This document shows positions 1 through 52,783 of a stretch of DNA of 64,000 bases, one piece after another. The DNA comes from a virus. Taxonomy: Duplodnaviria; Heunggongvirae; Uroviricota; Caudoviricetes. Below the pieces are notes generated by a model. That model worked only from the letters and a program-made list of their open reading frames with translations. It was not told the DNA's origin and did not search any database. Location of the stretch: IMG/VR virus record IMGVR_UViG_2654587772_000002. One strand, written 5' to 3'. Position numbers and translations under genes: made by a program. How positions within the stretch are numbered: the stretch's first letter is position 1; each line of letters begins with the position of its first letter.

Positions 1-66
1 GATTGTTCTTTGATTACGCGCTTGGAGTCGGCGCTATCACAAGTCATTCGTCGAGCGTTAGATAAA

Positions 67-83
67 ATTGCTCTAATGCATTG
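67..83 (+). promoter_or_regulatory. C1 repressor operator-like site (ATTGCTCTAATGCATTG) upstream of lpa
   Basis: Direct match to the asymmetric P1 C1 operator consensus ATTGCTCTAATAAATTT. Confidence 0.5.
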
Positions 84-153
84 CTATTTCTTTAATCGAT
101 GGTATTATATTCGACGTTGATTAGTTGACATGGGCTAATCAGTAGGTGACAGG

Positions 154-606
154 ATGTTACTTAACTGGCAGGGACGCCACTTCATGGAAATAAATCACTC
201 ACGAATAACATCGTACGAGATTGCGGATTACATGATCCGCACTAAATCTCTTCTATCAGCGAAAGAACTCGCAGCAATTCTTGAAAAGGAATACCCGCAT
301 CTGGATGTCGATAAGCGCGATGTTTATCTGCGCTTAAAGGCTATCGCTGTGTCTAAGTATTCGTCTGTTTTGATTGATGACAGTACACGCCCACGTAGAT
401 TTCAGATCCACTCTCTGAATCCTGAATTCTTTCGCCGCAGCCGCGCTCCGCGCCGGTTTGATGAAAAACTCCAGAACGAACTCTATATGACGCAGGACGA
501 AAAGGAACGCCGGGAGCACCAGCCTTGGGTAATGGCGCGTCAACTTTTCAATAAGGTGGCCCGTCAGCACCGTCATTACGGTAATGCCACATCCGCACGT
601 ATCTGA
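154..606 (+). CDS. lpa: Late promoter activator Lpa-like protein (150 aa)
   Basis: 150-aa ORF immediately upstream of pacA, as in P1; assigned by size and synteny, not by sequence recall. Confidence 0.55.
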   Translation: MLLNWQGRHFMEINHSRITSYEIADYMIRTKSLLSAKELAAILEKEYPHLDVDKRDVYLRLKAIAVSKYSSVLIDDSTRPRRFQIHSLNPEFFRRSRAPRRFDEKLQNELYMTQDEKERREHQPWVMARQLFNKVARQHRHYGNATSARI

Positions 607-691
607 TTGATTGCTTGCCCGTTCCGGGCCTTTTGACATGTGACTTTCGTTACCCTCGCGTCAAAAAGAGTTTTTACGAAAGGAAGCATAA

Positions 692-1885
692 GTGACCTGG
701 GACGATCACAAGAAGAATTTTGCTCGCCTGGCGCGAGATGGTGGTTACACCATCGCACAGTATGCCGCCGAGTTTAATCTTAACCCTAATACCGCACGTC
801 GTTATCTCCGTGCCTTCAAAGAAGACACCAGGACTGCGGACAGCCGCAAGCCAAATAAGCCAGTCAGGAAGCCACTAAAAGGCATGATCATTGATCACTC
901 TAATGATCAACATGCAGGTGATCATATTGCGGCTGAAATAGCGGAAAAACAGAGAGTTAATGCCGTTGTCAGTGCCGCAGTCGAGAATGCGAAGCGCCAA
1001 AATAAGCGCATAAATGATCGTTCAGATGATCATGACGTGATCACCCGCGCCCACCGGACCTTACGTGATCGCCTGGAACGCGACACCCTGGATGATGATG
1101 GTGAACGCTTTGAATTCGAAGCTGGCGATTACCTGATAGATAACGTTGAAGCGCGGAAGGCCGCGCGCGCTATGTTGCGTCGGTCCGGGGCCGATGTTCT
1201 GGAAACCACTCTTCTTGAAAAGTCTCTTTCTCATCTCCTTATGCTGGAGAACGCCAGGGATACGTGTATTCGTCTGGTGCAGGAAATGCGCGATCAGCAA
1301 AAAGACGATGATGAAGGGACTCCGCCTGAATATCGTATCGCGAGCATGCTAAACAGCTGTTCCGCGCAGATAAGCAGCCTGATCAACACCATTTACAGCA
1401 TCCGGAATAACTATCGAAAAGAAAGCCGGGAGGCGGAAAAGCACGCTTTATCTATGGGGCAAGCTGGCATTGTTAAGCTGGCATACGAACGAAAGCGTGA
1501 AAATAACTGGTCAGTGCTGGAAGCAGCTGAATTCATCGAGGCGCATGGCGGAAAAGTGCCGCCCCTGATGCTGGAGCAAATCAAAGCCGATCTGCGTGCT
1601 CCTAAGACCAATACCGATGATGAGGAAAGGCAAACAGCCGTCGGTGGCCCTTCTCTTGAAGATCTGGACAAAGTTGCGCGAGAACGGGCTGCCAACCGCC
1701 GCGCCGATGCCGCATTGTGGATTGAGCAGCGTAGGGAAGAAATCGCCGATATCGTTGATACAGGCGGTTATGGAGATGTTGATACTGAAGGTGTATCAAA
1801 CGACCCATGGCTGGAACAAGACCTGGACGAAGACGAGGAGGAAGACGAAGAAGTTACCCGCAAGCTATACGGGGATGATGATTAA
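692..1885 (+). CDS. pacA: Terminase pac-recognition subunit PacA (397 aa)
   Basis: 397 aa, GTG start with AAGGAAG SD; contains the GATC-hexamer pac site internally; stop overlaps pacB start. Confidence 0.8.
885..1044. other. pac packaging site: four TGATCA hexamers (885-924) and three TGATCR hexamers (1015-1044) flanking the cleavage region
   Basis: Hexamer repeats containing Dam GATC sites read directly in sequence inside pacA, matching the P1 pac architecture. Confidence 0.7.
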
Positions 1886-3369
1886 TGGCCAGAAGTTGCG
1901 TAACGGATCCACGTTGGCGCGAGCTGGTGGCGCTATATCGTTATGACTGGATTGCTGCCGCTGATGTTTTGTTCGGCAAAACACCTACCTGGCAGCAGGA
2001 TCTGATTATTGAGTCTGTGCAGGAACAGGGTAGCAAGACATCTGTTTCGTCTGGTCACGGTACCGGGAAATCAGACATGACTTCTATCATGATCATGTTG
2101 TTCATAATCATGTATCCCGGTGCCCGCGCCATTATCGTTGCGAACAAAATTCAGCAGGTAATGACCGGTATATTCAAGTACATCAAGATAAACTGGGCTA
2201 CTGCCACCAGCCGTTTTCCATGGCTTGCTGATTATTTTGTTCTGACAGAAACCGCTTTCTATGAGGTTACTGGTAAAGGTGTATGGACTGTAGTACCGAA
2301 GGGCTTTCGTCTGGGAAGTGAAGAAGCTCTCGCCGGTGAACACGCAGATCATCTTCTGTATATTATCGATGAAGCCTCCGGTGTCAGTGATAGAGCTTTC
2401 GGTATCATCACTGGTGCTCTTACCGGACAGGATAACCGCATCTTATTACTGTCACAGCCTACACGCCCAAGCGGCTATTTCTACGATACTCACCATAAAC
2501 TGGCCAAGCGTCCTGGTAACCCTGATGGCGTTTATACGGCGATCACGCTTAACAGTGAGGAATCACCGCTGGTAACGCCAGCATTTATCAAAATGAAGCT
2601 GGCGGAGTACGGCGGGCGTGATAACCCTATGTACATGATTAAGGTACGCGGACTATTCCCTAAATCACAGGATGGCTTCCTTCTTGGACGTGATGAGGTT
2701 GAACGTGCGACGCGGCGGAAAGTCAAGATTGCCAAAGGATGGGGCTGGCTTGCATGTGTGGACGTTGCTGGTGGTACAGGACGGGATAAGTCCGTTATCA
2801 ATATCATGATGGTGTCCGGCCAGCGAAATAAACGCCGTGTAATCAACTATCGAATGCTGGAATACACAGACGTTACAGAAACGCAGCTTGCCGCCAAAAT
2901 TTTCGCAGAATGTAATCCTGAGCGATTCCCAAATATCACCATAGCGATAGACGGCGATGGGCTGGGTAAAGCAACGGCGGATCTGATGTACGAGTATTAT
3001 GGTATTACCGTACAGCGCATACGCTGGGGTAAAAAGATGCATAGCCGTGAAGATAAGAGCCTGTACTTTGATAAACGTGCTTATGCCAACGTTCAAGCCG
3101 CAGAGGCCGTAAAATCTGGTCGTATGAGACTGGATAAGGGTAATGAAACTATTGAGGAAGCGTCGAAAATCCCTGTAGGGATTAACTCCGCAGGTCAATG
3201 GAAGGTGATGAGTAAGGAGGATATGAAGAAAAAACTCAACCTGCACTCACCAGACCATTGGGATACATATTGTTTCGCTATGCTGGCGGATTATGTTCCC
3301 CAGGACGAAGTGCTTAGCGTCGAAGACGAAGCGCAGGTTGATGAAGCTCTGGCATGGCTTAATGAATGA
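1885..3369 (+). CDS. pacB: Terminase large subunit PacB (494 aa)
   Basis: 494-aa ORF translationally coupled to pacA (ATGATTAATGG overlap). Confidence 0.8.
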
Positions 3370-3372
3370 ATA

Positions 3373-3389
3373 CTTGCTCTAATAAATTG
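3373..3389 (+). promoter_or_regulatory. C1 operator-like site (CTTGCTCTAATAAATTG) preceding the immI-like module
   Basis: 15/17 match to C1 operator consensus. Confidence 0.5.
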
Positions 3390-3569
3390 TGTTTTTTAAC
3401 TGCCGATGTTACATTGAGCCTGACCTCTTGCGCCTTGAGGCATTTTCGGTTTATGCTTATCAGGCACCTCAGTAAAACGGGTGCCGGGATTGAGACCCCG
3501 GATAATGCAAAAGGCGACACAGACGCCAAAAGCGTCTTTTTTTGTGTCATGCCATCGCACAGCCATACG

Positions 3570-3700
3570 TAGCGTTTAGCTCAGAGATCAATGGTAGTGC
3601 TGGCTGGGCTGCCGAAAGGCAGGCCGGTTCCCTTTTGCGCCGGTAGTCTCAACCCAGTCAGTGCTACCGCCATTGAGATTGAGACCTCACGCGGTAGCTC
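3570..3700 (+). ncRNA. Candidate c4-type antisense RNA (structured, tRNA-like leader) upstream of icd-ant
   Basis: Non-coding stretch with extended internal complementarity (ATCAATGGTAGTGCTGG vs CAGTGCTACCGCCATTGAG) and a segment (CAATGGTAGT) complementary to the icd leader/SD region (GCTGCCATTG); position matches the c4-icd-ant arrangement of P1 immI. Confidence 0.3.
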
Positions 3701-3728
3701 CTTAAATTAGCAAAAGGAGGCTGCCATT

Positions 3729-3950
3729 GTGGCTACTATCCCTACCCCAGCTCATCCTGAATTTATCTGGCGCTTTTACTCCTGCCAAAAACGTCACTAT
3801 CACTTCGTTATTGCACCGACAGAAGATGAGGCACGTTCTCAGCTTCCGGATGCTCCCTGTATTTTCTCTGCCCGCTTTTCTACCGATTCGCGCAATTCTC
3901 TCAGTTACTGGTGCCTCCCTGTTAACGCTTCTGCTCAGGAGGGACTATGA
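3729..3950 (+). CDS. Icd-like small protein (73 aa), translationally coupled to ant
   Basis: GTG start 10 nt after strong SD AAAGGAGG; stop overlaps ant ATG (ATGA); size matches P1 icd. Confidence 0.4.
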   Translation: MATIPTPAHPEFIWRFYSCQKRHYHFVIAPTEDEARSQLPDAPCIFSARFSTDSRNSLSYWCLPVNASAQEGL

Positions 3951-5049
3951 GAACGTCATTAGTCACCCGTGAAGAGATGATCGAGGCAATTGAACAGCAC
4001 ACTGCCTGTATCAGTACCAGGGATATACCGGGCGTTATTGCCAACTACTTCATGATCACCAAACAACTTTACCGGAGAAAGGACAAATACGCGGTTCACC
4101 GCATTCTGCTAACCGATATCCGTGAATACCTGCTCGAACAGGGTCATCTGAATTACGCAACCGTCGCAGCCGAAGCACGCAAGGAGGCACACAGAATGAA
4201 AGCAACTAACGTTAAATCAGAAAAAATTTATGCACCTTCAGTTCAGGAATCGGAACTGGTGGTTGTTCAGAATCAGCCGGATGAAATTCCCGTTCTGGAA
4301 TGGCAGGGAGTACGTGTCGTGACAACCGAAACTCTTGCTAGAGGGTATGGTGTCGATGAAGCCAATATTCGCAACAATTTGTCTCGCAACCTTGACCGCT
4401 TTGAAGAAGGTAAGCATTACTTTCTTCTAACTGGTTTAAAATTAAGAGAATTTAAGAACAGAGTAACCGGAAGTTACTCTGTTGGTAAGAACGCCAGAAG
4501 CCTTACACTCTGGACAGAGCGCGGCGCTGCACGCATGTCTAAGATCGTGGACACAAATGAAGCATGGGCATTCTTTGAAAAACTGGAAGACAGCTACTTC
4601 CGGCAAAAAGAACAGCAACCGGTTGCAATCCCCCAGACGCTTCCAGAAGCTCTGCGCCTGGCTGCCGAACTGGCTGAACAAAAGAACAGAAAGCCCACCA
4701 GCTAAATCAGCAGCTGGTGGCCGCCGCTCCTAAAGTCGATTTTGCCGACCGGGTATCAGTAGCTAAAGGGATCCTGATTGGGAATTTTGCAAAGGTTGTT
4801 GGACTTAAGCAAAACGCGCTGTTTGCCTGGTTACGGGAGAACGGCATCCTGATAGCGTCCGGTGGACGTAAAAATGTGCCGTTCCAGCAGTACATCAATG
4901 CGGGGTATTTCACGGTGAAAGAAGTGGTGCTGGATGATGAAGATGGCTACCAGATACGGTTGACGCCTCAATTAACGGGTAAAGGCCAGCAGTGGTTGAC
5001 GCGTAAACTGCTCGATGCTGGCTTGTTAAAACCGGTGGCGGCTGAATAA
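3947..5049 (+). pseudogene. Antirepressor Ant-like gene (ORF6N-type N-domain + KilAC-type C-domain) split into two ORFs (3947-4705 and 4717-5049) by a frameshift near 4678-4705
   Basis: Domain-like motifs recognised in translation (VRVVTTETLARGYGVDEANI...; PKVDFADRVSVAKGILIGNFAKVVG...); frame 1 is open from 4678 and continues the reading sense of the upstream ORF. Confidence 0.5.
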
Positions 5050-5056
5050 TGGAAGA

Positions 5057-5078
5057 ATGCCCGGTTGATGCCGGGCAT
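5057..5078. terminator. Bidirectional hairpin terminator between ant (+) and c1 (-)
   Basis: 8-bp perfect stem ATGCCCGG/CCGGGCAT with 6-nt loop between convergent genes. Confidence 0.5.
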
Positions 5079-5081
5079 AAT

Positions 5082-5933
5082 TTATTGCGCGCTTTCGGGG
5101 TTGTCGTTTACTGGCTGCCCCTTCTTGGTTTTACGGCTGCGCGTAACTGATGCGGCTGACTTAACCTTTTTCTCTTCGCGAGTGATGGCAATTTGTTTTT
5201 TTACATTTTCAATATCTGCCAGGCGATATATTTTTGCTTGCGGCCAGCGGTCGCAGATGATCGGTTCTATAGAGTCATAAAGGCTAAATTTTGCTTTCTC
5301 GAATTCACCGTTGATGATGATTCCATCACGGAGAGTTTCATCGCAGATAAACACGCCACACAGCGGTACATGGTAACTAACTGATTTACCATCATTGTAG
5401 TTAGGGCTACTGGAGATGTAGTGGACGCGCAGCATTGTTTCGCTAAAGCCGTGTACACGCATACGGAATTTTTCATCCTCCGGGTACTGCCTCATTAGCT
5501 CTTTTGTTGCTTCCAGGTTCTCTATGTATTTCGCACTGTGCTCATTGATCCCCGCGCTTTTTTGGATGCGAATGTCCTTATCAATCAGATGAATAATGCG
5601 GCCAGCGGTCATGTTGACGCTGTTCACAGCTTCTGTCTGATAAGTTGTAACCTTGCGCACACCGCGAAGGATGTTAGGCACTGGATATAAAATAGTCTTT
5701 GGGATATTGAGGTCTGGGTACTGTTCCAGTTCCCGCGCCATTAAAGTCCATTTATCAATTTCAGCCTGAATGCTGTCAGTTTCTTTGAACGGTAGAACGA
5801 CAACCGGGCGTACAGGACGACCGTCGCTGGCTGTATCAACGTGTTGGGCGCGTGCAACAGCTTTTTTTAGAAAGAGATCCCTGAAGCTGACGAACTCCTG
5901 GTACAGTTGTTCGCCGTAGACATAATTTATCAT
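5082..5933 (-). CDS. c1: C1 repressor of lysis (283 aa)
   Basis: 283-aa ORF beginning MINYVYGEQLYQEF, recognised as P1 C1; adjacent coi and operator sites. Confidence 0.9.
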   Translation of the reverse strand: MINYVYGEQLYQEFVSFRDLFLKKAVARAQHVDTASDGRPVRPVVVLPFKETDSIQAEIDKWTLMARELEQYPDLNIPKTILYPVPNILRGVRKVTTYQTEAVNSVNMTAGRIIHLIDKDIRIQKSAGINEHSAKYIENLEATKELMRQYPEDEKFRMRVHGFSETMLRVHYISSSPNYNDGKSVSYHVPLCGVFICDETLRDGIIINGEFEKAKFSLYDSIEPIICDRWPQAKIYRLADIENVKKQIAITREEKKVKSAASVTRSRKTKKGQPVNDNPESAQ

Positions 5934-6043
5934 TGATCCTCCTCCAGAATTGACATGGTCAATAACGCCCGGCTGAGAAAACCGGTCATTACTGACCTAT
6001 ATTATAGAGGGATCAAACAAAAATAATAGATTTATTAGTGCAT

Positions 6044-6253
6044 TTATTGTGAGTCCAACTGGTTAGTTGCCATGAGATATTCGATTGTGTCAGTGAGGTC
6101 ATCCAGGTCGTCTTGGGTGATGCGGTACTCCTGATTGGATATCTTTGAGTAGTGTTCAGCAATGGCGCGGGCAGCGTCGGTTTCGGCAGGGTCTACAGAT
6201 AAAGCGTTAGAGCAATGTCTAACGTCGTCGATGGTTGGTTGAATGAAAGCCAT
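6044..6253 (-). CDS. coi: C1 inactivator Coi (69 aa)
   Basis: 69-aa ORF upstream of c1 in same orientation, operator sites upstream. Confidence 0.8.
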   Translation of the reverse strand: MAFIQPTIDDVRHCSNALSVDPAETDAARAIAEHYSKISNQEYRITQDDLDDLTDTIEYLMATNQLDSQ

Positions 6254-6492
6254 AATTATGCCTCACTGTATTGACAACACAGAGCCTGAAGCTCTGACCT
6301 ACTGTTTCACCCATGATCCATGCTGGGGTAATCTAACAACATTGCGCTGTGTGTAAGATGAGCAATGCATAGCTGTAATGCCGTTGTATAAGGTTTCCCT
6401 GTTTGCTCATTTCCTTCTGAGCCGCTCTACAACGCTGAAGACACATTAAATAGTGAATCCAAAGTCGTATTACGAAACGGCGGCAAAACTAT

Positions 6493-6509
6493 AATTTATT
6501 AGAGCAATT
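6493..6509 (-). promoter_or_regulatory. C1 operator (reverse complement ATTGCTCTAATAAATTA) in coi-c1 promoter region
   Basis: 16/17 consensus match on minus strand. Confidence 0.6.
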
Positions 6510-6574
6510 GTCAAACAACTATGAAAAACAATCCAGTTTTTGGCTGGTGGAGTGGGATTTTTCTCTCAAAATTT

Positions 6575-6590
6575 ATTGCTCTAATAATTC
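6575..6590 (+). promoter_or_regulatory. C1 operator (ATTGCTCTAATAATTC) in coi-c1 promoter region
   Basis: Consensus match read in sequence. Confidence 0.6.
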
Positions 6591-6634
6591 TTGATTTTTA
6601 TGCGCAGCTGGACGTAAACTCCTCTTCAGACCTA

Positions 6635-6668
6635 ATAACTTCGTATAGCATACATTATACGAAGTTAT
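6635..6668. other. loxP: loxP site-specific recombination site (ATAACTTCGTATA-GCATACAT-TATACGAAGTTAT)
   Basis: Exact 34-bp loxP sequence present. Confidence 0.98.
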
Positions 6669-6857
6669 ATTAAGGGTTATTGAATATGATCAATTTACCT
6701 GTAAATCCATACAGTTCAATACCTTGGCAGGTCAAATAGTGATCACTTGATCATTTGATCAAGGTTGCGCTACGTAAAATCTGTGAAAAATTGGCGGTGT
6801 TAGTCCTACAGATTTCGCGTAGCGCACTTAGCACCACCAATCAATCAGAGGTGAAAA

Positions 6858-7079
6858 ATGGGATATTCAACTGCTAAAGTGTCCACTCATCTTGAGCTTG
6901 AGAAAAACCGTGGTTACTGGCGGGCAAAAGGGTTTGATCGTGATAGTTGCCAACTGTCATTATCGCGCGGTGAAGAAAAAATAGAACGCACGCGCGGTCG
7001 CTGGCGTTTCTATGACGAGAACCATAAACAGGTAAAGGCAGAGCCGATCCTGTACACTTTACTTAAAACCATTATCTGA
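6858..7079 (+). CDS. Hypothetical small protein (73 aa) between loxP and cre
   Basis: ORF with SD GAGGTG 7 nt upstream of ATG; no recognisable domain. Confidence 0.3.
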   Translation: MGYSTAKVSTHLELEKNRGYWRAKGFDRDSCQLSLSRGEEKIERTRGRWRFYDENHKQVKAEPILYTLLKTII

Positions 7080-7086
7080 GTGTTAA

Positions 7087-8118
7087 ATGTCCAATTTACT
7101 GACCGTACACCAAAATTTGCCTGCATTACCGGTCGATGCAACGAGTGATGAGGTTCGCAAGAATCTGATGGACATGTTCAGGGATCGCCAGGCGTTTTCT
7201 GAGCATACTTGGAAAATGCTTCTGTCCGTTTGCCGGTCGTGGGCGGCATGGTGCAAGTTGAATAACCGGAAGTGGTTTCCCGCAGAACCTGAAGATGTTC
7301 GCGATTATCTTCTATATCTTCAGGCGCGCGGTCTGGCAGTGAAAACTATCCAGCAACATTTGGGCCAGCTAAATATGCTTCATCGTCGGTCCGGGCTGCC
7401 ACGACCAAGTGACAGCAATGCTGTTTCACTGGTCATGCGACGGATCCGAAAAGAAAACGTTGATGCCGGTGAGCGTGCAAAACAGGCGCTGGCGTTCGAA
7501 CGCACTGATTTCGACCAGGTTCGTTCACTCATGGAAAATAGCGATCGCTGCCAGGATATACGTAATCTGGCATTTCTGGGGATTGCTTATAACACCCTGT
7601 TACGTATAGCCGAAATTTCCAGGATCAGAGTTAAAGATATCTCACGTACTGACGGTGGGAGAATGTTAATCCATATTGGCAGAACGAAAACGCTGGTTAG
7701 CACCGCTGGTGTAGAGAAGGCACTTAGTCTGGGGGTAACTAAACTGGTTGAGCGATGGATTTCTGTCTCTGGTGTGGCTGATGATCCGAATAACTACTTG
7801 TTTTGCCGTGTCAGAAAAAATGGTGTTGCCGCGCCATCTGCCACCAGCCAGCTATCAACTCGCGCCCTGGAAGGGATTTTTGAAGCAACTCACCGATTGA
7901 TTTACGGGGCTAAGGATGACTCTGGCCAGAGGTACCTGGCCTGGTCTGGACACAGTGCCCGTGTCGGAGCCGCGCGAGATATGGCCCGCGCCGGAGTTTC
8001 AATACCGGAGATCATGCAAGCTGGTGGCTGGACCAACGTAAATATTGTCATGAACTATATCCGTAACCTGGATAGTGAAACAGGGGCAATGGTGCGCCTG
8101 CTGGAAGATGGCGATTAG
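7087..8118 (+). CDS. cre: Cre tyrosine recombinase (343 aa)
   Basis: Translation begins MSNLLTVHQNLPALPVDATSDEVRKNLMDMFRDRQAFSEHTWKMLLSVCRSWAAWCKLNNRKWFPAEPEDVRDYLLYLQARGLAVKTIQQHLGQLNMLHRRSGLPRPSDSNAVSLVMRRIRKENVDAGERAKQALAFERTDFDQVRSLMENSDRCQDIRNLAFLGIAYNTLLRIAEISRIRVKDISRTDGGRMLIHIGRTKTLVSTAGVEKALSLGVTKLVERWISVSGVADDPNNYLFCRVRKNGVAAPSATSQLSTRALEGIFEATHRLIYGAKDDSGQRYLAWSGHSARVGAARDMARAGVSIPEIMQAGGWTNVNIVMNYIRNLDSETGAMVRLLEDGD, i.e. Cre; loxP ~420 bp upstream. Confidence 0.98.
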   Translation: MSNLLTVHQNLPALPVDATSDEVRKNLMDMFRDRQAFSEHTWKMLLSVCRSWAAWCKLNNRKWFPAEPEDVRDYLLYLQARGLAVKTIQQHLGQLNMLHRRSGLPRPSDSNAVSLVMRRIRKENVDAGERAKQALAFERTDFDQVRSLMENSDRCQDIRNLAFLGIAYNTLLRIAEISRIRVKDISRTDGGRMLIHIGRTKTLVSTAGVEKALSLGVTKLVERWISVSGVADDPNNYLFCRVRKNGVAAPSATSQLSTRALEGIFEATHRLIYGAKDDSGQRYLAWSGHSARVGAARDMARAGVSIPEIMQAGGWTNVNIVMNYIRNLDSETGAMVRLLEDGD

Positions 8119-8168
8119 CCATTAACGCGTAAATGATTGTTCTAATTCTTTGATATTTATGGTGACAT

Positions 8169-8480
8169 ATGAGAAAGGATTTCAACATCGACGGAAAATA
8201 TGTAGTGCTGTCTGTAAGCACTAATATTCAGTCGCCAGCCGTCATTGTCACTGTAAAGCTGAGCGATAGAATGCCTGATATTGACTCAATATCCGTTGCG
8301 TTCCCTGTCAAAAGTATGCGTGGTGCTGAACATTTCGTGATGAATGCCACCGAGGAAGAAGCACGGCGCGGTTTTGCTAAAGTAGTGTCTGACTTTGGCG
8401 AACTCTTGGATAAGGTTAACAATGTCCTTTCAATCAGTTCAGCAAGGTCCAAAGCGTTAACAGCTTCCATGATGAAATAA
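8169..8480 (+). CDS. Hypothetical protein (103 aa) downstream of cre (position of P1 cra)
   Basis: ORF only; no domain recognised. Confidence 0.35.
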   Translation: MRKDFNIDGKYVVLSVSTNIQSPAVIVTVKLSDRMPDIDSISVAFPVKSMRGAEHFVMNATEEEARRGFAKVVSDFGELLDKVNNVLSISSARSKALTASMMK

Positions 8481-8485
8481 AAAAA

Positions 8486-8504
8486 GCCTGGCAAGGAACC
8501 AGGC
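8486..8504 (-). terminator. Hairpin GCCTGG-loop-CCAGGC preceded by an A-run (U-run on minus strand)
   Basis: Stem-loop plus T-tract when read on minus strand. Confidence 0.35.
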
Positions 8505-8607
8505 TGCACAAAAGAGCGGGTTTGTGTTCCGCATCCAATCAATCAGAAAGGAGTATAGCACATAGATACTAAAGTGAAAAAATGTGACTGAAGATAAACA
8601 ATATAAC

Positions 8608-8624
8608 ATTGCTCTAATTGATTG
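8608..8624 (+). promoter_or_regulatory. C1 operator-like site (ATTGCTCTAATTGATTG), apparently orphaned from ref by the cargo insertion
   Basis: Consensus match; no operator found immediately upstream of the ref-like gene at 11982. Confidence 0.45.
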
Positions 8625-8828
8625 TTATAATTGAGCCGTGGCGTTAGTCAACTACGAAGACGTGGCCATTACCTACTTAACCAGTTCCGCCAGGGCAGCA
8701 GAGTAGGTTTCATCTCGGATGTACCATGCCTGCATGTTTTCCAGAGAAGCCCGCGAGGTTCCCGGACAGGACTCTGCCATTGCGATAGATTAAATGCAAT
8801 AACCTAAAAGCGATAACGTGGTGGAAAA

Positions 8829-9468
8829 ATGTTCATCAGAGCTTATTTAAGGGCATCAACGGAAGATCAGTTTGCCGATCGGGCAAAAGAGATGCTGGGG
8901 CAGTTTGTTCAGGAGCGGGGACATAAAATAGCCAGTTACTACCGGGAGAACATAAGCGGTACAAAACTCGACCGCCGGAACTGGGACGCTTACTGATGGA
9001 CAGCCACCGCAATGATATTTTACTGGTCGAGCAAATTGACCGCCTGACCCGTCTGAGTAACAGTGACTGGATTACGCTGAAAAAGCAGATAGAACAACAC
9101 GAACTGCGGATTGTCGCCTGGATGTATCCACCTCATGGCAGGCGCTGTCAGATAAAGACCCTTCGCAGGCTGACCCAATCACCCGCGCCGTGATAACCGC
9201 CATCAATAACATGCTTATCGACCTGATGGCCGCGATGTCGCATAAGGACTGGCTGAGCCGTCGCCAACGGCAACAACAGGGAATTGAACGGGCTCATACG
9301 CTGGGTAAATACCGGGGATAACAGGCCGATCAGGAACGGCATCAGAAAGTCCTGTACTACTGGCAGGTCAAGAAACTAAGTATCCATGAAACGGCAGATG
9401 CGACAGGGTACAGTCCTTCACAGATATGCCGCATTCAAGCCCTTTATAGAGAGCCTGAATCGGAATAA
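8829..9468 (+). pseudogene. Serine recombinase (resolvase/invertase family) remnant with at least two frame disruptions
   Basis: N-terminal MFIRAYLRASTEDQ motif (catalytic Ser region), then ...DILLVEQIDRLTRL... and a C-terminal HTH-like part in other frames; interrupted by stops. Confidence 0.6.
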
Positions 9469-12371: not shown

Positions 12372-12560
12372 TAAATATATTATTTTTAATCTTAAATGAT
12401 TGACAACTGACAAGTGACTTGAGTCAGAATCATCACACGCCCGGTACGGATGGATCCCTTTTCAAATATTCCATGGACGGCACAGTCTGAGTACCGGGCG
12501 CTACCTTCTGTTGTATTGCTAAGCCGCCGCTGGTGGCTTTTCTTTTTTATAGGGGGCGAT

Positions 12561-13205
12561 ATGGATAAGAAAATATGCGTTGTTTCGATGAGCGTCGGTA
12601 AACCGGCGTCAATGACTGCTGCATGGATCAACAACGAGCTGATAATGGCTGAGCGGACCAGCTACCCTGAACGCCGCCGCGATATGGAACTCCAGCTGCT
12701 GCGCGAATTGCGAGAAAAAGAGGAAAAGGGTTTTATCGTGCTGGTGGAAGAGGAAAACAGCTTTATTACCGGTCGAGTTGGCCAGCGTGTAAGGTTGCGC
12801 GATCCCTTCATGAACGGCAGGCCGGTACTAATTGAAGCAATGCAGATTTACAAGGAGCTGGAACGCCAGAAAGCGATCAAGTTACCGCGCAAGGAATCCG
12901 GCAAATACATCCTCCACCAAAGCATCTTCGATTCCGAACACGATAAAAAAGGCGATGAGTTTTTCAACATCAACTGGAGCGAAATAACGACAGAGCATGT
13001 TCTGACGTTGTTATGCTGCTTCGCAACAGAATACAACAACGTGGTAAGCGCAGACTACATCAGGACAATGACAGACACCGTTACTAAACAAGACAACGAA
13101 TATTCACCATATGAGCCATTTGTAAATATGATAAAAGCATTTTATCGGATGGAGCTCGCTAAAGTTCCTCAAGGTAAATTAACAGGTAAGGATAACATCT
13201 TTTAA
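12561..13205 (+). CDS. Mat-like particle maturation protein (position-based); ORF track extends to 12450 but ATG 12561 has strong SD AGGGGG
   Basis: Synteny with P1 mat; SD-ATG spacing. Confidence 0.45.
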   Translation: MDKKICVVSMSVGKPASMTAAWINNELIMAERTSYPERRRDMELQLLRELREKEEKGFIVLVEEENSFITGRVGQRVRLRDPFMNGRPVLIEAMQIYKELERQKAIKLPRKESGKYILHQSIFDSEHDKKGDEFFNINWSEITTEHVLTLLCCFATEYNNVVSADYIRTMTDTVTKQDNEYSPYEPFVNMIKAFYRMELAKVPQGKLTGKDNIF

Positions 13206-13258
13206 GCACAGTAATGAGGTGCTTAGATGTTAATATCAATATCCTAACTCTCTGCATC

Positions 13259-13948
13259 TCATAAATCTGATAGCCACTTACTATCTATGGACTCAATCTC
13301 CGTCAGCGGAATTGATGGGAAAAAATATCCCTGAGCGCCCCATAGCCCTATTCCTTTTGATAACTTATGACAATCAATGTTTTCGACGCCTTCAGCGATG
13401 ATATTCGGACATAACTTTTTTAAATTGCTAATAATGACATCAAAATGAGGCTTAATCATATGCTCTTGAAAAAATGACTTATCAAGTTTTATTGCATGGT
13501 ATTTATTTTTAATTAATGCTTTCATGGTGGCGTTACCACTTCCAAAATCATCAAGCCAAACATAGTCTGTCAAAGTCAGGAGAAAGGGTATAACGTAATC
13601 CTCATCGCTTAAATCAGGGTAGTTTTCTGATATCTCAAGAACTATAAATTTATTGTTTTTAATTAACTCTTGAGTTTGTTTATTACTGTATATATATATA
13701 CATGTATCATAATCTACATTAATAGAACATAGTATATTATGGCGTTCAAAAAAACACTTGTATTTCATTATTGTGTTAAGTTGTGATTTAAGTAAATTAA
13801 TCTTCATCTTATTGGTAAACATACCCAATACTCTTTGAGTAGGAAGAGCGACACCATCTTTGGAGCGAAATCTGCTTAACACTTCTACTGCAATCAACTT
13901 GTTCGTGCTCGTAGAAATGATTGGTTCTGCAATGTAGATAACTTCCAT
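13259..13948 (-). CDS. Stand-alone EAL-domain protein (229 aa), YdiV/PdeH-like, catalytic motifs apparently conserved
   Basis: Motifs EVL, EISEN, DDFGSG, KLDKSF, EGVEN, QGYFF in EAL order; strong SD GAGGGTGG upstream; very AT-rich. Confidence 0.7.
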   Translation of the reverse strand: MEVIYIAEPIISTSTNKLIAVEVLSRFRSKDGVALPTQRVLGMFTNKMKINLLKSQLNTIMKYKCFFERHNILCSINVDYDTCIYIYSNKQTQELIKNNKFIVLEISENYPDLSDEDYVIPFLLTLTDYVWLDDFGSGNATMKALIKNKYHAIKLDKSFFQEHMIKPHFDVIISNLKKLCPNIIAEGVENIDCHKLSKGIGLWGAQGYFFPSIPLTEIESIDSKWLSDL

Positions 13949-14184
13949 ATCCCCACCCTCAAGTTTTAAATTGCTTGATTTTGCTCAGATAACGAGCCCC
14001 CTATATTTACAAGAGTTACACTCTACTTTTGTAGATTAAATGTCAATTTATTTGTTTGTGATAATATTGAAAAATATCAATTAAAACAATCAAAAAATGT
14101 GACATAAATCAATAATTTTATTTTTACACAACTTCTTGATTTCTGAGCCTAGCTATCTCTATTCTTATTCAAAGCCTCTTTAGA

Positions 14185-14919
14185 ATGGTGGTGGCCATGT
14201 CAGCAGTTTGTTACTTCATACTCATAAAGAAACCTATAAGCTTTCAATTTCTTAAGGATTTCTTAATATTAAATTATGGTGATGTGTTGTTGCTTAAGCA
14301 TTCTGAGCATGAATGCTTAAAAATCTATTCAGACAAATATATAGAATTCGAACTCAATGATAATACCGTAAGAAACTATTTATCATGCAACAACAACCAT
14401 GGAAACCAATCGCTGGATAAGTGTCCGCATTTGCTAAAAAAGTCTTTTGCCTATCCTGATTTATTAATCAGGATGATCGATAATATAAGCGATCAAAATC
14501 ATATCCATTCTGATTTTAGGGAGGCAGTAACTTTTTCATTACTCTCAATTTTTAATGATGTTGATAACTTTAGAGCATTTCTTACGTCTGGTATGCCCAC
14601 TTTCTCAGGGAAAGTGCGCAGCATATTTCTTTCAGATGTATCTAAACACTGGAAACTAAGAGACCTAACCGATTATCTCTACATGAGTGAAAGCTTAATA
14701 AAGAAAAAACTATTATTGGAAAACACCTCCTTCAGTAAGTTATTACTTGATACACGGATGGCTTTTGCTATTAAATTACTAAAGCAAAATCATCCAGTCA
14801 AACAAGTATCAGAAAGCTGTGGCTTTAGTAGTACATCGTACTTTGTGTGCCTGTTCAGGCAATATTATAATTGCACGCCACGTGAATATGCAAAACATCA
14901 ATTATTATCTGGAAAATAA
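14185..14919 (+). CDS. AraC-family transcriptional regulator, AppY/EnvY/GadX-like (244 aa)
   Basis: C-terminal HTH region WKLRDLTDYLYMSESLIKKKLLLENTSFSKLLLDTRMAFAIKLLKQ...GFSSTSYFVCLFRQYYNCTPREY closely resembles E. coli AppY. Confidence 0.75.
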   Translation: MVVAMSAVCYFILIKKPISFQFLKDFLILNYGDVLLLKHSEHECLKIYSDKYIEFELNDNTVRNYLSCNNNHGNQSLDKCPHLLKKSFAYPDLLIRMIDNISDQNHIHSDFREAVTFSLLSIFNDVDNFRAFLTSGMPTFSGKVRSIFLSDVSKHWKLRDLTDYLYMSESLIKKKLLLENTSFSKLLLDTRMAFAIKLLKQNHPVKQVSESCGFSSTSYFVCLFRQYYNCTPREYAKHQLLSGK

Positions 14920-14957
14920 GATGCATTTATCTCCCAGATAATATTGTAATATTAAAC

Positions 14958-15206
14958 TCAGTCAGCATTTAGTAGCAGAGCATTATCTATGATGATCTGC
15001 TCCCATTCTTCGAATGCCCGGTCACGGACGCCCTGGGGAACACTGTTTGTTTTGAAATCAACGACTGTCCGCCATTTCCCGTCCGGACGGTACATGCGCA
15101 GAGCTTTACTTCCCCCTTCCCTACGCACCTCAACGTTATGCTTGTCAGCAAACTCTTGTAATGCTCGTAGCGTCCCATGCTTTACTGTGTAGTATCGCTT
15201 TTTCAA
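14958..15206 (-). CDS. lxc: Lxc/Bof-like C1 co-repressor (82 aa)
   Basis: 82-aa ORF immediately downstream of ulx-darB as in P1; assigned by size and synteny. Confidence 0.55.
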   Translation of the reverse strand: MKKRYYTVKHGTLRALQEFADKHNVEVRREGGSKALRMYRPDGKWRTVVDFKTNSVPQGVRDRAFEEWEQIIIDNALLLNAD

Positions 15207-15643
15207 GTTTTCTCTCCAGCCTGTGCCAAGGCTTCAACTTCCAAATCGTAAGACTCAAACTCATAGTCCTGGTCGTCAACTTCTTCAGGCACTGGCAGTA
15301 AATGCCAGGCTGAGTATATCTGACCATTATCAAAACGCTCCTGGCTGTAGAGCGTCGCAGCTATGAGCGTCAGCGCCGGGCGGTCATAACGGTAAATTTT
15401 GCGAACGTCACGGTCAACGAGACGACCGAAATTACCATAACCGCGCTCCAGTAATAATTTTTTAATTTCCGGCCAGTATGGGCCATAGCTGCGGTACAGG
15501 CGGGGATTTTTCAGTAATCGCCCGCGTAGCCCTGACAGGAAGAAATCAACGTATTCGTCTTCTGTCTTTCCTAACAACGCTGTACGGAGTACCGCCTCAA
15601 GATATGTTTTATTCGGTTTTATTGTATCAGATAGTGTGGCCAT
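15203..15643 (-). CDS. Ulx-like protein (146 aa), darB-associated
   Basis: Coupled (4-nt overlap) to lxc, downstream of darB. Confidence 0.5.
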   Translation of the reverse strand: MATLSDTIKPNKTYLEAVLRTALLGKTEDEYVDFFLSGLRGRLLKNPRLYRSYGPYWPEIKKLLLERGYGNFGRLVDRDVRKIYRYDRPALTLIAATLYSQERFDNGQIYSAWHLLPVPEEVDDQDYEFESYDLEVEALAQAGEKT

Positions 15644-15676
15644 ATTATGCGACGCCCGGCGAACCGGGCGCTCCTG

Positions 15677-18600
15677 TTATGCGTATTGTTGGATGACGGC
15701 CAGAACGTCCGCCACGTTGTGTTTTGTCTCGATAATCCACCAGTTACCCGGGAAATCGCTGTTCTTCGCCTTCGCTGGCAGCCAGCGAGCGCCGAATTTC
15801 GCCTTGATTGCGTCTTTCGCACGGAAAAGAACGCCTTTCATGCCTGAGGCTTCCTGAAGCCCAAATACCTCGCCAGCGGCGAATTTTGGTGCGTACATCA
15901 TCTTCAGGTCGGCGGTGGATACGCGATAATTCAGACCTAGAGACTGAGCTATGCTGGTGGCATCACCCTGTATTGATGATAACTCTTCTTGTTTCTCGTT
16001 TCTGGCGGCAATCTCTTCCTCCGTGATGTTGCCAAGGGCCAGGTTTATCCGATCAGCGTCGGCCTGTTTCTCTTCATCGGTGCGCCCGGCAAGAACCGTG
16101 TTAATTCTCTGCAATATCTCCACATGATTCTTGCGCATGCTGAGCAATTCCGGCGTAACCTCGTTAAGATCCACCAGCCCAAGGATGGCAAGGTCGGAAA
16201 ACATTGATACCAGGTTGTAGGTCATGCGATAGCTGAGTTGACCATAGGCTGATGGCAACTTCACCGCATCCATTTGATAGGCATCCATAAATTTAGAGCC
16301 GTCGTTTACGACATCCGCTATTGCAGGTGTGATTTTCCCTGTGGTGGCGGCCTCCCTGATTGCTGTTACCCACGATTGAGTCAGCGCGGCGACTGCATGA
16401 TTCAGATTGGCTTCCCGTTCTGCTGCGATGCGCGCGCTTGCTGCGTCCATTGCCTGCTTGATCTCGGCTTTATTGCTGTAAATGCCAATGGTGCCAAACT
16501 GTGCTGTGGTGATCTCATAATCTGACGCCCGGAACTCATTGGTACCGAAAATGGCATTGGTGACTTCAAGTTCAGAATCCCCGTTACGAGTAGCCCCCTG
16601 GCTTGTTTTTTCCGGCATTCTGGCGATCGCATCCGCTATTTTCTCCTGAATTGCTTCAGGGGATAGCGTATCTCCGTATGACGCGATTACATCGCCATAA
16701 TTGGAGCCAAACAATTCAACCAGGAATGTTTCTGCCGAACGGATCTGGCGGTTATTCCCTTCCGACATCATACCAAGCACCCATTTTGCAATTGACGACT
16801 TCAGCGCGACGTCACGGCGATCCGGGTAAACCGCATGCTTCAGTGGGTCCGTATAGGTACCAACAAAATCAATGCTATAGCCTGACTCTGTAGTCTGAAC
16901 GCCGTATGAGTCAGTGATTTTGATCATGCCGCGCTGCTGGAAACGGTAGAAATCGTCACAGGAAATGATGTCGTTAATCCCGGCGATGGAGACGCCGCCA
17001 CTGATTTTCTGCATAACAGCATCTTCATCGGGAGTTACATCAACCTGTTTATCCAGCGTCTTCACATCCCAGTTACCCGATTTGGTACCTTTGAAGGTAA
17101 AGATAATCTCCACGTCTGCGCGCAGGCTGTCGAAGTCCAGCGACTTAATGCGAACGATATCACCGGCACAATCGTAGTATTGGCCTACACGCCATGAGCG
17201 ATCGCCGATAATAAGGAACTCACTCGCATGGTTAACCAGGTCAGGATCAACATCCAGAATGCCTTTATTTATTGCATCCTCCACCAGCGGGCGCAGGCGT
17301 TTGATATCCGTCGCGGCCTTCTGAGTACGGTTCAATAATTTCTCATAGCGGGAGATGGCTTGAGAGATATTAGCCTTGCGCTGAATGGCGCTTTTCAACG
17401 ACGCGCGATACTGTGCTAACAACGTACGGTCTGTGTGATGGACGCTACCCCAGCGGGCTTTCCAGTCTGCGTTATCAGCTGCTTTGGCCATTACCGCCTG
17501 TTTGAATTTGGCGACGTCGGCGGTGGTCTTTTCAAGTTCCGCTTTGCTTCGCTCTAATTCAGCGGTAAGCACCTCCACATCCTCACCAGCTGCGTGCTGC
17601 GCCTTGATGTAGTTCTGAAGGTCGATAGTAGCCTGTTCTTTCTGGCGAGCGCGTTGCGCGGCTTTCGCCTTATCCATTTGAACCTGCATCATTGCCAGAC
17701 GTTCGCCATCATCCTTAGCGGTATACATCTGCATTTCGATCATATCGTTGGCGTCGGCGTTCTCCATTTCTGACTTATCTGAACGGAGGATATCGGAGAT
17801 CCAACCTGCTTTACGCTTCAGCGTCTTCAGTCGGTATTCATCGAAAGAACCCTTGCCGCAGTAGTAGTGAACGCGAACGCTTGCACGGTTGGAACCAACT
17901 CGGGCACCGCGACCGTTACGCTGTGCGATACTGGCTGGTGTCCATGGCAACGTCAGATGATGGATGTCAGTCGTTCCTCGATGCAGGTTGATACCCACCT
18001 CTGCCTTTTTGTTGCAGATGATGATCGGAGTCCGGCCCTCCTGGAAGTCGGCTGCAATCTTTTCCAGACCGCCCAACGACATTTCATTTTGCTGCGCGAT
18101 ATAGGCGTCATACAGAGCTATTTGCTCGTTGTATTTCGCTATCTGTGCATCTGTTGGTTCATCCGGTAACTCTTTCGGCGGTTTAACCGCTTTCAGTTTC
18201 TTACCGGTTTTACCTGCCTCGGCAACCGTCTGAGCATTCAGGATCCCCACCTTTGAAGGTTCAAGGTTAAGAGCATTGCAGATAATGCGCTTGAGCTTCT
18301 GGTGTTGCGTTTTTTCATCGGTGAAGATGATTTGCTTACCTTCTGGGAAAAACTCCTTCAGCGTGGCAATCAGCTTCGCGTATTTGGGCGTAACGGGGTG
18401 AGTTACGGTCTGTTCGTCAATGCCAAACTTGGCCAGGCGCTTATTCACTTCCTGCTCAAATGCTTCCGGTACCTGCAACTGAATAAACTCGCCCTTATCT
18501 ATCAGGGAGTATTGCGATTGCTGCGTGATTGAATCATCACTGTCGTCGTCTTCGCTGGTGGCTTGTTTGGGCAAACTGTCCGCCAGCTGCTGCACCGCAT

Positions 18601-22444: not shown

Positions 22445-22510
22445 TGGTAATCCTTAACAAGTGACTAGTGTTAAATTCCGTTCAAACACGATGCGAATTA
22501 TTCTAATTAA

Positions 22511-24241
<1,731 letters not shown>

Positions 24242-36778: not shown

Positions 36779-37600
36779 GTGCGCCCAGCATGGGCGCGAT
36801 CTTGGAGGTGAAAGCCCTCCCGCGAGCTGACCACAGCGAGCGAAAGGAAGTGCAACTGCGTGAGGGCGGCTAGGCGTGGGGAGGAAGCACGGAATGAACC
36901 CGTGAGCCGATGAACAAGAATCGGATATGAGGCGCGATGGAGCAAGGCGAGCAGGCACATCACTGCGAAGCTTTCGTGACAAAGTCGCGTAGATCCGACG
37001 GTTGTGCGGGGAAGGATCGCGTTCTTACCTGGGGAGTTCTCGCCTCATGCCTGAAAGGGCAACGTCGTAAGACGGAGCGAGAAGTCAGCAGAGGCCGTAG
37101 TAGTCAGGACTCCGACGAAGGGCCGAACGAGAAGGAAAGCCAAAAGATATGACTCTTGACAGGACATTGCGTCAGAAGCCGGGGAAGCCCGGTACGGACC
37201 CGCATGCCGGGTGGTGTGGCAGGGGCGCAGCCTTGTGCTCCCCCCTATGCCGATCAAGCAGAACATTGTGCTGGGCCTCTGACGCATCTCCTTGATGGTC
37301 TTGGCATCGTGCTTAAGTGGATTGGTGTCGTCTCTGATAGGCTCATGGAGGCAGAATGAAACTCAAAAATCCGGGACAGCACGCAAAACAGGCTGCACAA
37401 AAAGCGCAGGTTGCGTAGGAGTGGAATCCCGCTCCCAAAAAATGGTGCAGAAGTTGCGGCAGTGGTCATCCGACGCACTGGAAAATAACAAACCCGCCGT
37501 GACCAGAATCGGAGGCCTGAGGGAGTGACCGTAAAACCGGATAACCCAGGCAGCAAATACCCGCTGGATGAGGCATGGTTCCGGCAGATAATACCGAAAA
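36779..37600 (+). ncRNA. GC-rich non-coding block with group II intron-like 5' end (GTGCGCCCAG), preceded by a perfect hairpin (36746-36777); possibly ORF-less or degenerate intron or other large structured RNA
   Basis: No credible ORF on either strand across ~0.9 kb; 5' end resembles the Ll.LtrB intron start as I recall it; many GNRA-type tetraloop motifs; 3' boundary and domain V not identified. Confidence 0.3.
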
Positions 37601-51662: not shown

Positions 51663-51996
51663 TTAACCGATTCTACGAGTAGTCATTTGTTCATCGTGTA
51701 ACAATATTGCCATTGGATAAAATAACTACAGCGCCCACAAACGGGCGCATTCTGTACATGACTTGAGATATATTATGTTGCATTAAAGCTTTTCAAATGA
51801 TAATCAGCCAAGCCTTTCGCAATTATCGGCATAGTATTTTGTTGCATTTACTATTATTGACTCATAATACGATTTGCATTCTTTCTTCCATGGAGTGCAC
51901 GAATTTATTTTTTCCATATCGTTTTTATTTTTAGAAATACCAACAAGCATAATGTACCCGATAAATCTTGTTGTCAACGCGCCAATCGGTAGCGTT

Positions 51997-52284
51997 CTAT
52001 TCTCGGCTACTGTCTTTTATTAAATTATCTTTATATTGAGGAATGAAATAGTTACCAACATATTCCAGATTTGCTTCAATAGGATTAAGATAGAATGAGC
52101 AATACTGAAAAGTGGGAATTTGTCTAAATTTAACACCAGAACATAATGAATAAATTTCTTGTTCTTTTGTTAGTTCTTTTACTATGTGACTGTTGTCAGT
52201 CGTATCTTCTAATCTTATATAGTTCAAAGACGATTTTGCTTGTCCTGGGCTTACAAGCTCAATAACAGGATGCCCATTAGACAA
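51997..52284 (-). CDS. Hypothetical protein (95 aa) in AT-rich island
   Basis: ORF only. Confidence 0.3.
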   Translation of the reverse strand: MSNGHPVIELVSPGQAKSSLNYIRLEDTTDNSHIVKELTKEQEIYSLCSGVKFRQIPTFQYCSFYLNPIEANLEYVGNYFIPQYKDNLIKDSSRE

Positions 52285-52334
52285 TGTTATTCTTTCGATC
52301 TTACCCCGAATTCTAGAAGTTTGACTCCATTCAT

Positions 52335-52568
52335 CTAGGCTGCTATTTCATTTTTCTTGAATGAATCAACAATATCTGATGGCAAGCTAAAAACAGTAGC
52401 TTTCGTATTCATAGTATATGCAAGCGAAGCAGATACCATATAGTTTCTGACTAAATTATAGTCCTTCTCGGAAACAGAATACTCATTAGGAATAGCTATT
52501 GAATTTGCAAATGAATAGCTGCTAACAAAAGCAAACGGCAACAATAGTTTAAACATTAATTTTTTCAC
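52335..52568 (-). CDS. Hypothetical small secreted protein (77 aa) with N-terminal signal peptide
   Basis: MKKLMFKLLLPFAFVSSYSFA signal-like N-terminus. Confidence 0.4.
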   Translation of the reverse strand: MKKLMFKLLLPFAFVSSYSFANSIAIPNEYSVSEKDYNLVRNYMVSASLAYTMNTKATVFSLPSDIVDSFKKNEIAA

Positions 52569-52597
52569 TTATCACTATCCTTCGAATATCTTTACAT

Positions 52598-52783
52598 TTA
52601 AAGCCCGTCTTTGCAGAGACTAGTTGCTGTAGCGGTAAGTTGTGAAACAGGAATGTTAGGGCTGTCCCGTTTCTGAAGATACCCGGCGCTTAGTGTGGAC
52701 TGATGCTCTGCTGCGCTCGCTGGCGTACCAGCGGCAACCAGCCAGACTACTGCGGACAGAATAACAGCACATAATTTACGCAT
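52598..52783 (-). pseudogene. lom: lom fragment: first ~37 codons of a Lom/Ail-family outer membrane protein fused to unrelated AT-rich sequence
   Basis: MRKLCAVILSAV...AAEHQSTLSAGYL matches lambda Lom N-terminus, then diverges and terminates at 61 aa. Confidence 0.7.

Follow-up and report, generated by a model that had tools for sequence, protein, structure and literature searches.

Genes and RNA elements between pacB and c1

This analysis concerns a 1.7-kb cassette between the genes pacB (1885-3369) and c1 in a 64,000-nucleotide stretch of viral DNA (IMG/VR record IMGVR_UViG_2654587772_000002; the whole stretch is hereafter called the window), the first 52.7 kb of which is a P1-like phage-plasmid. 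The cassette (3370-5081) carries a C1 operator, two promoter-like sites, a leader RNA, a C4-type antisense RNA, an icd-like gene, and an ant gene whose reading frame is broken, all on the plus strand. It is followed by c1 itself, an open reading frame (ORF) of 283 amino acids (aa) on the minus strand (5082-5933) that is annotated as "phage repressor protein C1" in an identical E. coli ST2747 record and in relatives, and whose product is presumed to bind the operator and to be targeted by Ant. We consider it likely that the cassette is a second, heteroimmune immI-type antirepressor module inserted in the pacB-c1 spacer; its proposed working follows from homology with P1 immI (summarized in PMC8198154) and Gifsy-1 isrK.

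A C1 operator at the upstream edge had been anticipated in the original prediction, which was made from the sequence before any comparison, and the sequence CTTGCTCTAATAAATTG (3373-3389, plus strand) matches the P1 C1 operator consensus at 15 of 17 positions (2 mismatches), aligns with P1 Oc4, and is the counterpart of P1 Oc4/Op51. Eight operator-like sites with up to 3 mismatches occur in the window, against 0.24 expected by chance, and the remaining ones sit where P1 operators do, upstream of lpa and around c1/coi. The operator is kept in 61 of 62 relatives with the same type of leader RNA (IsrK type, see below), with the exact window sequence in 16; binding of C1 to it is predicted. Two candidate promoters, suggested by positional homology with P1, follow on the plus strand. 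The first (TTGTGT at 3387-3392, 17 nt, TACATT at 3410-3415) lies at the position of P1 P2c4 (P51a), and its -35 element overlaps the operator. The second (TTGCGC at 3428-3433, 18 nt, TATGCT at 3452-3457) lies at the position of P1 P1c4 (P51b), and transcription from it is predicted to begin near 3464, where the leader RNA match also begins.

An Rfam scan of the whole 64-kb window at curated gathering thresholds identified both RNAs. The leader (3464-3543, plus strand) matches isrK (RF01394) at 3464-3542 over the complete model (1-77 of 77; 58.2 bits, threshold 50), a family that the original prediction had not anticipated. Its recognition sequences are a1, TTGAGAC (3490-3496), in a hairpin loop, and b1, GCAAAAGG (3507-3514), which is single-stranded in the predicted fold; a terminator scan and the fold agree on an intrinsic terminator at 3521-3537 followed by a run of seven T residues. 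The original prediction had further described a structured non-coding region complementary to the downstream ribosome-binding region and had proposed the Rfam C4 model as a check. This region proved to be a C4-type antisense RNA (3587-3674, plus strand; RF01695, 75 bits, threshold 45, model 1-87 of 87) with a predicted fold of -46.4 kcal/mol (z = -5.6). The b' loop, CCTTTTGC (3631-3638), and a', GTCTCAA (3646-3652), find their exact 8-nt and 7-nt complements in the icd leader on the plus strand, at b2 (GCAAAAGG, 3710-3717) and a2 (TTGAGAC, 3679-3685), respectively, and b2 overlaps the Shine-Dalgarno (SD) sequence of icd, AAGGAGG (3714-3720). The 3' end of the C4 RNA is tRNA-like (ACCGCCA), a resemblance that would fit maturation by RNase P. 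The leader of P1 itself matches Rfam c4-a1b1 (RF03163, in the same clan as C4) and not isrK, whereas those of RCS47, pHNTH9F11-2, and D6 match isrK, like the leader in the window. At window positions 3591-3710, the RefSeq annotation of ST2747 and of relatives has a 39-aa "ash family protein" (WP_071527722.1); this coding sequence falls wholly within the C4 RNA and its a2 site, an NCBIfam scan of the 39-aa ORF gave no match, and the annotation is likely a miscall over an RNA gene.

The icd-like gene (3729-3950, plus strand; 73 aa, GTG start) matches the NCBIfam family phage_ICD_like (E = 2.6e-13) and is 81% identical to P1 Icd; an identical protein, WP_001361625.1, is named Icd-like by RefSeq, and Pfam gave no match for the 73-aa product. 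The start codon is GTG in the window, pHNTH9F11-2, and JL22 and ATG in RCS47, D6, and the other specificity classes. Its stop codon overlaps the ATG of ant (ATGA, 3947-3950), so the translational coupling of an SD-driven 73-aa ORF to an antirepressor gene was correctly foreseen, as were the ORF6N and KilAC motifs of the latter. The 5' part of ant is a 252-aa ORF (3947-4705, plus strand) with ORF6N (Pfam, E = 1.3e-18), in which an ant1-type start at 3947 is followed by an in-frame ant2-type ATG at 4196 behind an SD sequence, AAGGAGG (4181-4187); the offset of 83 codons between the two equals that in P1. The 3' remnant (4684-5049, plus strand), out of frame with the 5' part, contains ANT/KilAC (Pfam, E = 4.3e-31); its DNA is 83% identical to the 3' end of P1 ant, and its longest ORF (4717-5049; 110 aa) begins with GTG and has no evident SD sequence. 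Ant is a mosaic relative to its P1 counterpart, with which it shares a conserved N-terminal segment of 83 aa and the KilAC end; the ORF6N centre is absent from P1 Ant, and an intact relative is 57% identical to P1 Ant1. Among the relatives, the centre varies from 74% to 100% identity, and the ends exceed about 91%. The same ant allele (99.6-99.8% identical) also stands elsewhere behind a c4-a1b1-type leader (locus L072), and in phage D6 a leader and C4 RNA 95.7% identical to those of the window, with the same a and b sequences, stand elsewhere in the genome and are joined to a different antirepressor, of the Rha/Roi type. These alternative joinings indicate that RNA cassettes and antirepressor genes reassort.

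Alignment to P1 immI, another check proposed with the original prediction, gave a counterpart at a homologous position for each annotated P1 immI feature: operator, promoters, a1/b1, C4, a2/b2, icd, and the coupled ant1/ant2 starts. The cassette shares with P1/P7 immI the order of its parts, a C1 operator overlapping a -35 element, the placement of both target pairs with b2 over the icd SD sequence, a C4 RNA above the Rfam threshold, a closely similar Icd, the ATGA overlap, the 83-codon offset, and the N- and C-terminal segments of Ant. It differs in mapping to the pacB-c1 spacer and not next to sim and kilA-repL, in its recognition sequences (TTGAGAC/GCAAAAGG, against TTGACAG/GTTAGTGA in P1), in a leader that has an intrinsic terminator and matches isrK instead of c4-a1b1, in the ORF6N centre of Ant, and in the broken ant of the window copy. 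The description as an immI-like module therefore holds for every P1 feature, with the leader as the part that departs from the P1 type. Two features of the P1/P7 type are lacking in the window copy, namely an intact ant and the canonical map position, and relatives supply or account for both. The cassette belongs to the P1 immI kind, carries an IsrK-type leader, and does not represent a new kind of system.

Covariation of the recognition sequences

To follow the recognition sequences across relatives, 79 related loci were collected from IMG/VR via the Icd protein, together with P1, RCS47, JL22, a PLSDB plasmid, D6, and the ST2747 records. A loop pattern detected 60 modules, and 26 more loci were recovered by Rfam instead. 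In all 60 pattern-found modules, which represent 11 loop combinations, exact 7-nt complements of a' occur both immediately 3' of C4 and in the leader; b' is matched exactly over 8 nt at the icd SD sequence and over 7-8 nt in the leader, and all offsets are fixed. A twelfth specificity class (the 26 Rfam-recovered loci) pairs in the same way, with one G-U pair in each downstream duplex (a2 and b2). In a six-sequence alignment of IsrK-type classes, both pairing sets (leader a1/b1 and downstream a2/b2) showed 100% paired cells, with compensatory changes at 7 of 15 pairs; when the partner was slid by 1-3 columns as a control, only 26-56% of cells paired, and for the downstream a2/b2 set 26-53%. 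The sequences a'/a1/a2 and b'/b1/b2 thus co-vary across at least 12 specificity classes, and the complementarity noted in the original prediction is both conserved and compensated in homologues; the lack of conservation that would have spoken against that prediction is clearly not what was observed.

At least three a alleles and at least three b alleles were found at the pacB-c1 site, and two a and five b alleles at modules with an a1b1-type leader, in reassorted combinations; wherever both members of a module pair from one contig or genome record could be read, their a/b specificities differed. On some single P1-like contigs (L021/L080, L046/L083, and L057/L084), the pacB-c1 cassette is accompanied by an a1b1-type C4-icd-ant module at a distance of only 6-7 kb, and the specificities differ within each pair; these modules probably represent the "RD-1" icd-ant insertion described for pSvP1. 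One locus, L016, has two tandem copies of the IsrK-type leader and C4 RNA (2257-2446 and 3823-4012) of identical specificity, 1,566 nt apart; two a1b1-type modules (L081 and L086), whose specificities are different, lie on the same IMG/VR contig.

The canonical immI module and the break in ant

In P1, only 24 bp separate the stop codons of pacB and c1, and the cassette replaces exactly that spacer. Nearly all IsrK-type loci in IMG/VR are flanked by pacB and c1. In PLSDB, 309 records contain at least 80% of the cassette and 329 contain the intact ant linker, compared with 315 that have the empty P1-type junction. The cassette is therefore a common presence/absence polymorphism in about half of P1-like phage-plasmids, and its position beside c1, which had been thought unusual, is not. 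The phage-plasmids RCS47, JL22, pTZ20_1P, and pHNTH9F11-2 carry it at the same site with 94-99% identity over the whole 1.7 kb and an intact ant of 370-372 aa, although RCS47 has a different b allele (GTCAAAGG). The insertion has been mentioned in print for pTZ20_1P and RCS47 as ant with two short hypothetical ORFs between pacB and c1 (PMC6906374); we found no literature on its RNAs or its operator.

The original prediction had left undecided whether this was a relocated or a second immunity module and suggested a search of the rest of the replicon. The window is 100% identical over positions 1-6542 to the ST2747 record NZ_CP007393.1, and a second ST2747 record, NZ_CP007394.1, matches it at 99.98%, interrupted by large gaps; the window itself is probably a third assembly of ST2747. 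In NZ_CP007393.1, a canonical block of C4 (69.6 bits), icd, a 462-aa ant, kilA, and repL lies at the opposite end of the P1-like sequence. No canonical immI was detected within the 64-kb window, either by BLAST with P1 46.5-52.5 kb or by the whole-window Rfam scan, because the P1-like sequence ends at 52672. The recognition sequences of the canonical module (a, TTAGCAG; b, GATTGTGA) differ at several positions from those of the cassette (TTGAGAC and GCAAAAGG), so the two C4 RNAs should not cross-react, as P1 and P7 provide a precedent. The segment at 3370-5081 is thus a second immI-type module rather than a relocated one.

A frame break in ant near 4678-4705 had also been claimed, and its cause is a 10-bp deletion (GCAGCTTCTG) between 4683 and 4684 on the plus strand, in the linker that joins ORF6N (aa 116-200) to KilAC (aa 258-359). 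It was found against every relative aligned, and in the alignment to three of them it is the one indel in ant; restoring the 10 bp yields a single 370-aa ORF with a layout identical to that of the relatives, in which intact ant encodes 370-372 aa. As the gene stands, the Ant1-type and Ant2-type products both end in "...LAEQKNRKPTS" after 6 out-of-frame codons and lack KilAC. The linker has the 71-nt intact form in 61 loci, and the 61-nt form occurs only in the window and the two ST2747 records. An 80-nt junction probe for the deleted form likewise matched only NZ_CP007393.1 and NZ_CP007394.1, whereas the probe for the undeleted form matched 329 PLSDB records and 337 complete E. coli records. 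The deletion is therefore private to assemblies of one strain, ST2747.

Of the 57 IsrK-type loci that could be assessed, 53 have an intact ant; among the assessable relatives, ant is disrupted in 3 of 57. One of the latter, L058 (IMGVR_UViG_2737471840_000005), is an unrelated genome with a different ant allele, in which an independent 10-bp deletion (TTCTGGAACA) located 4 nt downstream gives the same out-of-frame RKPTS* tail; ant is broken in L050 by 4 inserted bp and in L028 by an insert of about 1.3 kb. The C4 pairing sites of these relatives are intact wherever they could be checked. Two such deletions in close proximity could reflect a deletion hot spot or repeated selection against Ant. 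As for direct repeats that would explain slippage at the deletion in the window, its flanks showed only 1 nt of microhomology, and the GAACA repeats, 18 nt apart, would yield an in-frame loss. A perfect 10-bp inverted repeat (CCACCAGCTG...CAGCTGGTGG) lies in the ant linker at 4695-4720, 12 nt downstream of the deletion, and might favour slippage.

Three other accounts of these data were weighed. If the cassette were the only immI of the element, moved from beside sim, kilA, and repL to the c1 side, the single C4 match in the 64-kb window and the end of P1 homology just past pmgC, where sim-immI would start, would be explained. This account counts as refuted, with a negligible residual probability, by the C4-icd-ant-kilA-repL block at the other end of the P1-like contig in the same genome record, and it is further contradicted by the two ant-related places per record in most plasmid relatives and by the canonical block after pmgC in the intact relative NZ_CP027575.1. 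More weight is due to an assembly or sequencing error over a gene that is intact in the cell, since the source genomes were sequenced with PacBio RS II C2 chemistry at about 28x and stitched from about 14 scaffolds (PMC3983296), several other genes in the region are also labelled "frameshifted", and the assemblies differ mutually by single indels. We nevertheless regard an error as improbable: a 10-bp loss in non-repetitive sequence, with no homopolymer slip, is atypical of the platform, the same junction is present in the window and in two ST2747 assemblies from separately sequenced cultures, and the independent deletion in L058 shows that such lesions occur here. That both pieces of ant are made and work as a split protein, or are joined by programmed frameshifting, would suit the single complete Pfam domain in each piece and the position of the break in an inter-domain linker of variable length. 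It is nonetheless hardly credible in view of the absence of an SD sequence before the GTG at 4717, the lack of a slippery heptamer at the break, the uninterrupted linker in 61 related loci, and RefSeq, which already labels ant a "frameshifted" pseudogene.

Proposed working and surroundings of the cassette

By homology with P1 immI and Gifsy-1 isrK, operator-bound C1 would close the upstream promoter of the cassette, while the downstream promoter would go on transcribing the leader and C4. Most transcripts would end at the leader terminator, releasing an IsrK-type RNA of about 80 nt with a1 and b1, and the read-through transcripts would be processed to C4 RNA. Pairing of a' and b' with a2 and b2 would then cover the icd ribosome-binding site and block icd translation, and the ATGA-coupled ant would go untranslated and its transcription would be incomplete. 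If C4 is titrated away or lacking, as on entry into a cell without this C4 specificity, Icd and Ant1/Ant2 would be made, and Ant would inactivate C1. In the window copy, the 10-bp deletion truncates both Ant forms before KilAC and leaves the operator, leader, C4, and icd intact; the cassette therefore probably still supplies C4 immunity against incoming phages of the same a/b specificity and no longer derepresses. The ORF6N fragment may retain residual activity.

In the satellite phage P4, the replication genes are controlled by transcription termination only, and Icd, Ant, and a C1 operator are all lacking. The P4 CI RNA with seqA and seqC resembles the cassette in that a processed small RNA has repeated targets upstream and downstream of itself (PMC4825925). 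The isrK-orf45-anrP locus of the Salmonella prophage Gifsy-1 shares with the cassette an IsrK-family leader whose terminator is read through, a C4/CI-like RNA that is processed, and an antirepressor gene translationally coupled to a small ORF upstream of it (PMC4825925). In that system, most transcripts end as a short small RNA, read-through yields an inactive mRNA and the processed C4/CI-like STnc1160, and the short IsrK activates orf45-anrP translation (PMC4825925). The cassette differs from Gifsy-1 in that its small ORF is a recognizable Icd homologue, its promoter has a P1 C1 operator, its antirepressor is of the P1 Ant1/Ant2 type, and no AntQ-type antiterminator is present. Trans activation by the short RNA and Hfq binding are known only for Gifsy-1 and might extend to the cassette.

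These parallels raise an alternative, which carries limited weight and overlaps the immI-type reading rather than excluding it: control might follow the Gifsy-1 logic and not that of P1, the terminated leader turning on icd-ant translation in trans, by soaking up C4 or by opening the read-through transcript, with the C1 operator playing a secondary role. It would account for a leader that matches isrK and has an intrinsic terminator lacking in P1, and for the a1/b1 sequences, which are exposed in the predicted fold and co-vary with a'/b'; because they are exposed in the short leader, this RNA could be a C4 decoy. The activating IsrK with STnc1160 downstream in Gifsy-1 offers a model (PMC4825925). 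Yet P1 also has a1/b1 without a terminator, the conserved C1 operator argues that C1 control matters, and the present analyses do not separate decoy action from simple autoregulation. Some points also weigh against the interpretation of the cassette as a second immI-type module: it is known here from sequence and not from expression; both promoter-like sites are weak matches that a strict consensus scan missed; the leader terminator could mean that the supply or control of C4 differs from that in P1; P1 Ant has an unrelated centre in place of ORF6N, which allows for a different target of the Ant encoded here; and, with early PacBio assemblies at about 28x, a slight risk of sequence error persists.

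In E. coli and Salmonella, resistance genes are commonly carried by P1-like phage-plasmids, whose invasion of occupied cells and whose quiescence depend on immunity circuits. The second-module reading turns a frequent pacB-c1 insertion into an antirepressor cassette that is complete, wired to C1, controlled by RNA, and endowed with a specificity of its own, so that the annotation line "hypothetical, hypothetical, ant" becomes a testable circuit, and it links the Salmonella IsrK small RNA family to the classical P1 a1/b1 leader. What is new is modest, namely the RNA-level reading of a frequent unannotated insertion and the three-way covariation tying isrK to the a1/b1 leader; the insertion itself had been mentioned in print, and both RNAs are covered by Rfam. 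The practical point for the element in the window is also modest, one of its two antirepressor genes being dead, and the cassette is an unexceptional representative of a known kind, marked by a strain-private pseudogenizing deletion. A bolder and rather doubtful extension would see two orthogonal RNA locks, at the pacB-c1 and canonical sites, as part of a combinatorial immunity code among competing P1-like plasmids, with the leader as a C4 decoy in a three-RNA switch and the loss of ant as a selected "disarmament". If so, losing ant while keeping C4 would preserve immunity and remove the risk of self-induction; four disrupted ant alleles were seen, including the two independent 10-bp deletions 4 nt apart.

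Around the cassette, the ORF list places lpa at 154-606 and pacA at 692-1885, and cre lies at 7087-8118. A terminator scan found a G+C-rich hairpin at 5057-5078, a candidate two-way terminator between the convergent ant and c1; P1, with its 24-bp spacer, lacks it. Segments of kilobase scale within the P1-like element are present in some of the three ST2747 assemblies and missing in others (window 6543-8145, 18934-20870, 5060-9316, and 12455-24171); NZ_CP007393.1, for example, lacks the cre region, and NZ_CP007394.1 lacks c1-cre. These differences could be either assembly noise or rapid rearrangement in nitrofurantoin-selected derivatives.

From the junction at 52672/52673 onward, the P1-like stretch is bordered by lambdoid tail genes (lom', J, I, K, L, M, and tape measure; window 51709-56107). 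The J gene is split into ORFs of 721 and 462 aa that overlap at 54164-54239 (window 52851-56329, minus strand), another apparent frameshift, which may be real or an assembly error. A J'-lom' copy of 3,436 bp with 99.9% identity (L008 32236-35671) borders the other end of the P1-like stretch in NZ_CP007393.1, and the ST2747 "chromosomes" were built from about 14 PacBio scaffolds that were ordered on a reference map and then concatenated (PMC3983296). Given this flanking duplicate and the concatenation, the apparent chromosomal integration is most likely an artefact, and the element is really a plasmid. The canonical immI of ST2747 (L008 32128-32240) keeps a1, b1, C4, icd, and ant and is without Op51 and both promoters; about 746 bp that are present in the plasmid NZ_CP027575.1 (L089 4073-4818) are missing at its contig break, probably an assembly gap and not biology. 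The idea that integration had severed the canonical immI promoter was dropped in view of the scaffold concatenation, the 3.4-kb duplicate, and the segment missing at the break relative to the intact plasmid. Finally, Rfam matched group II intron fragments D1-D4 at window positions 36860-37123 (95.5 and 46.8 bits), with no reverse-transcriptase ORF nearby; they are flanked by tail-fibre assembly and holin genes and a serine acetyltransferase gene, and are common to 37 plasmids.

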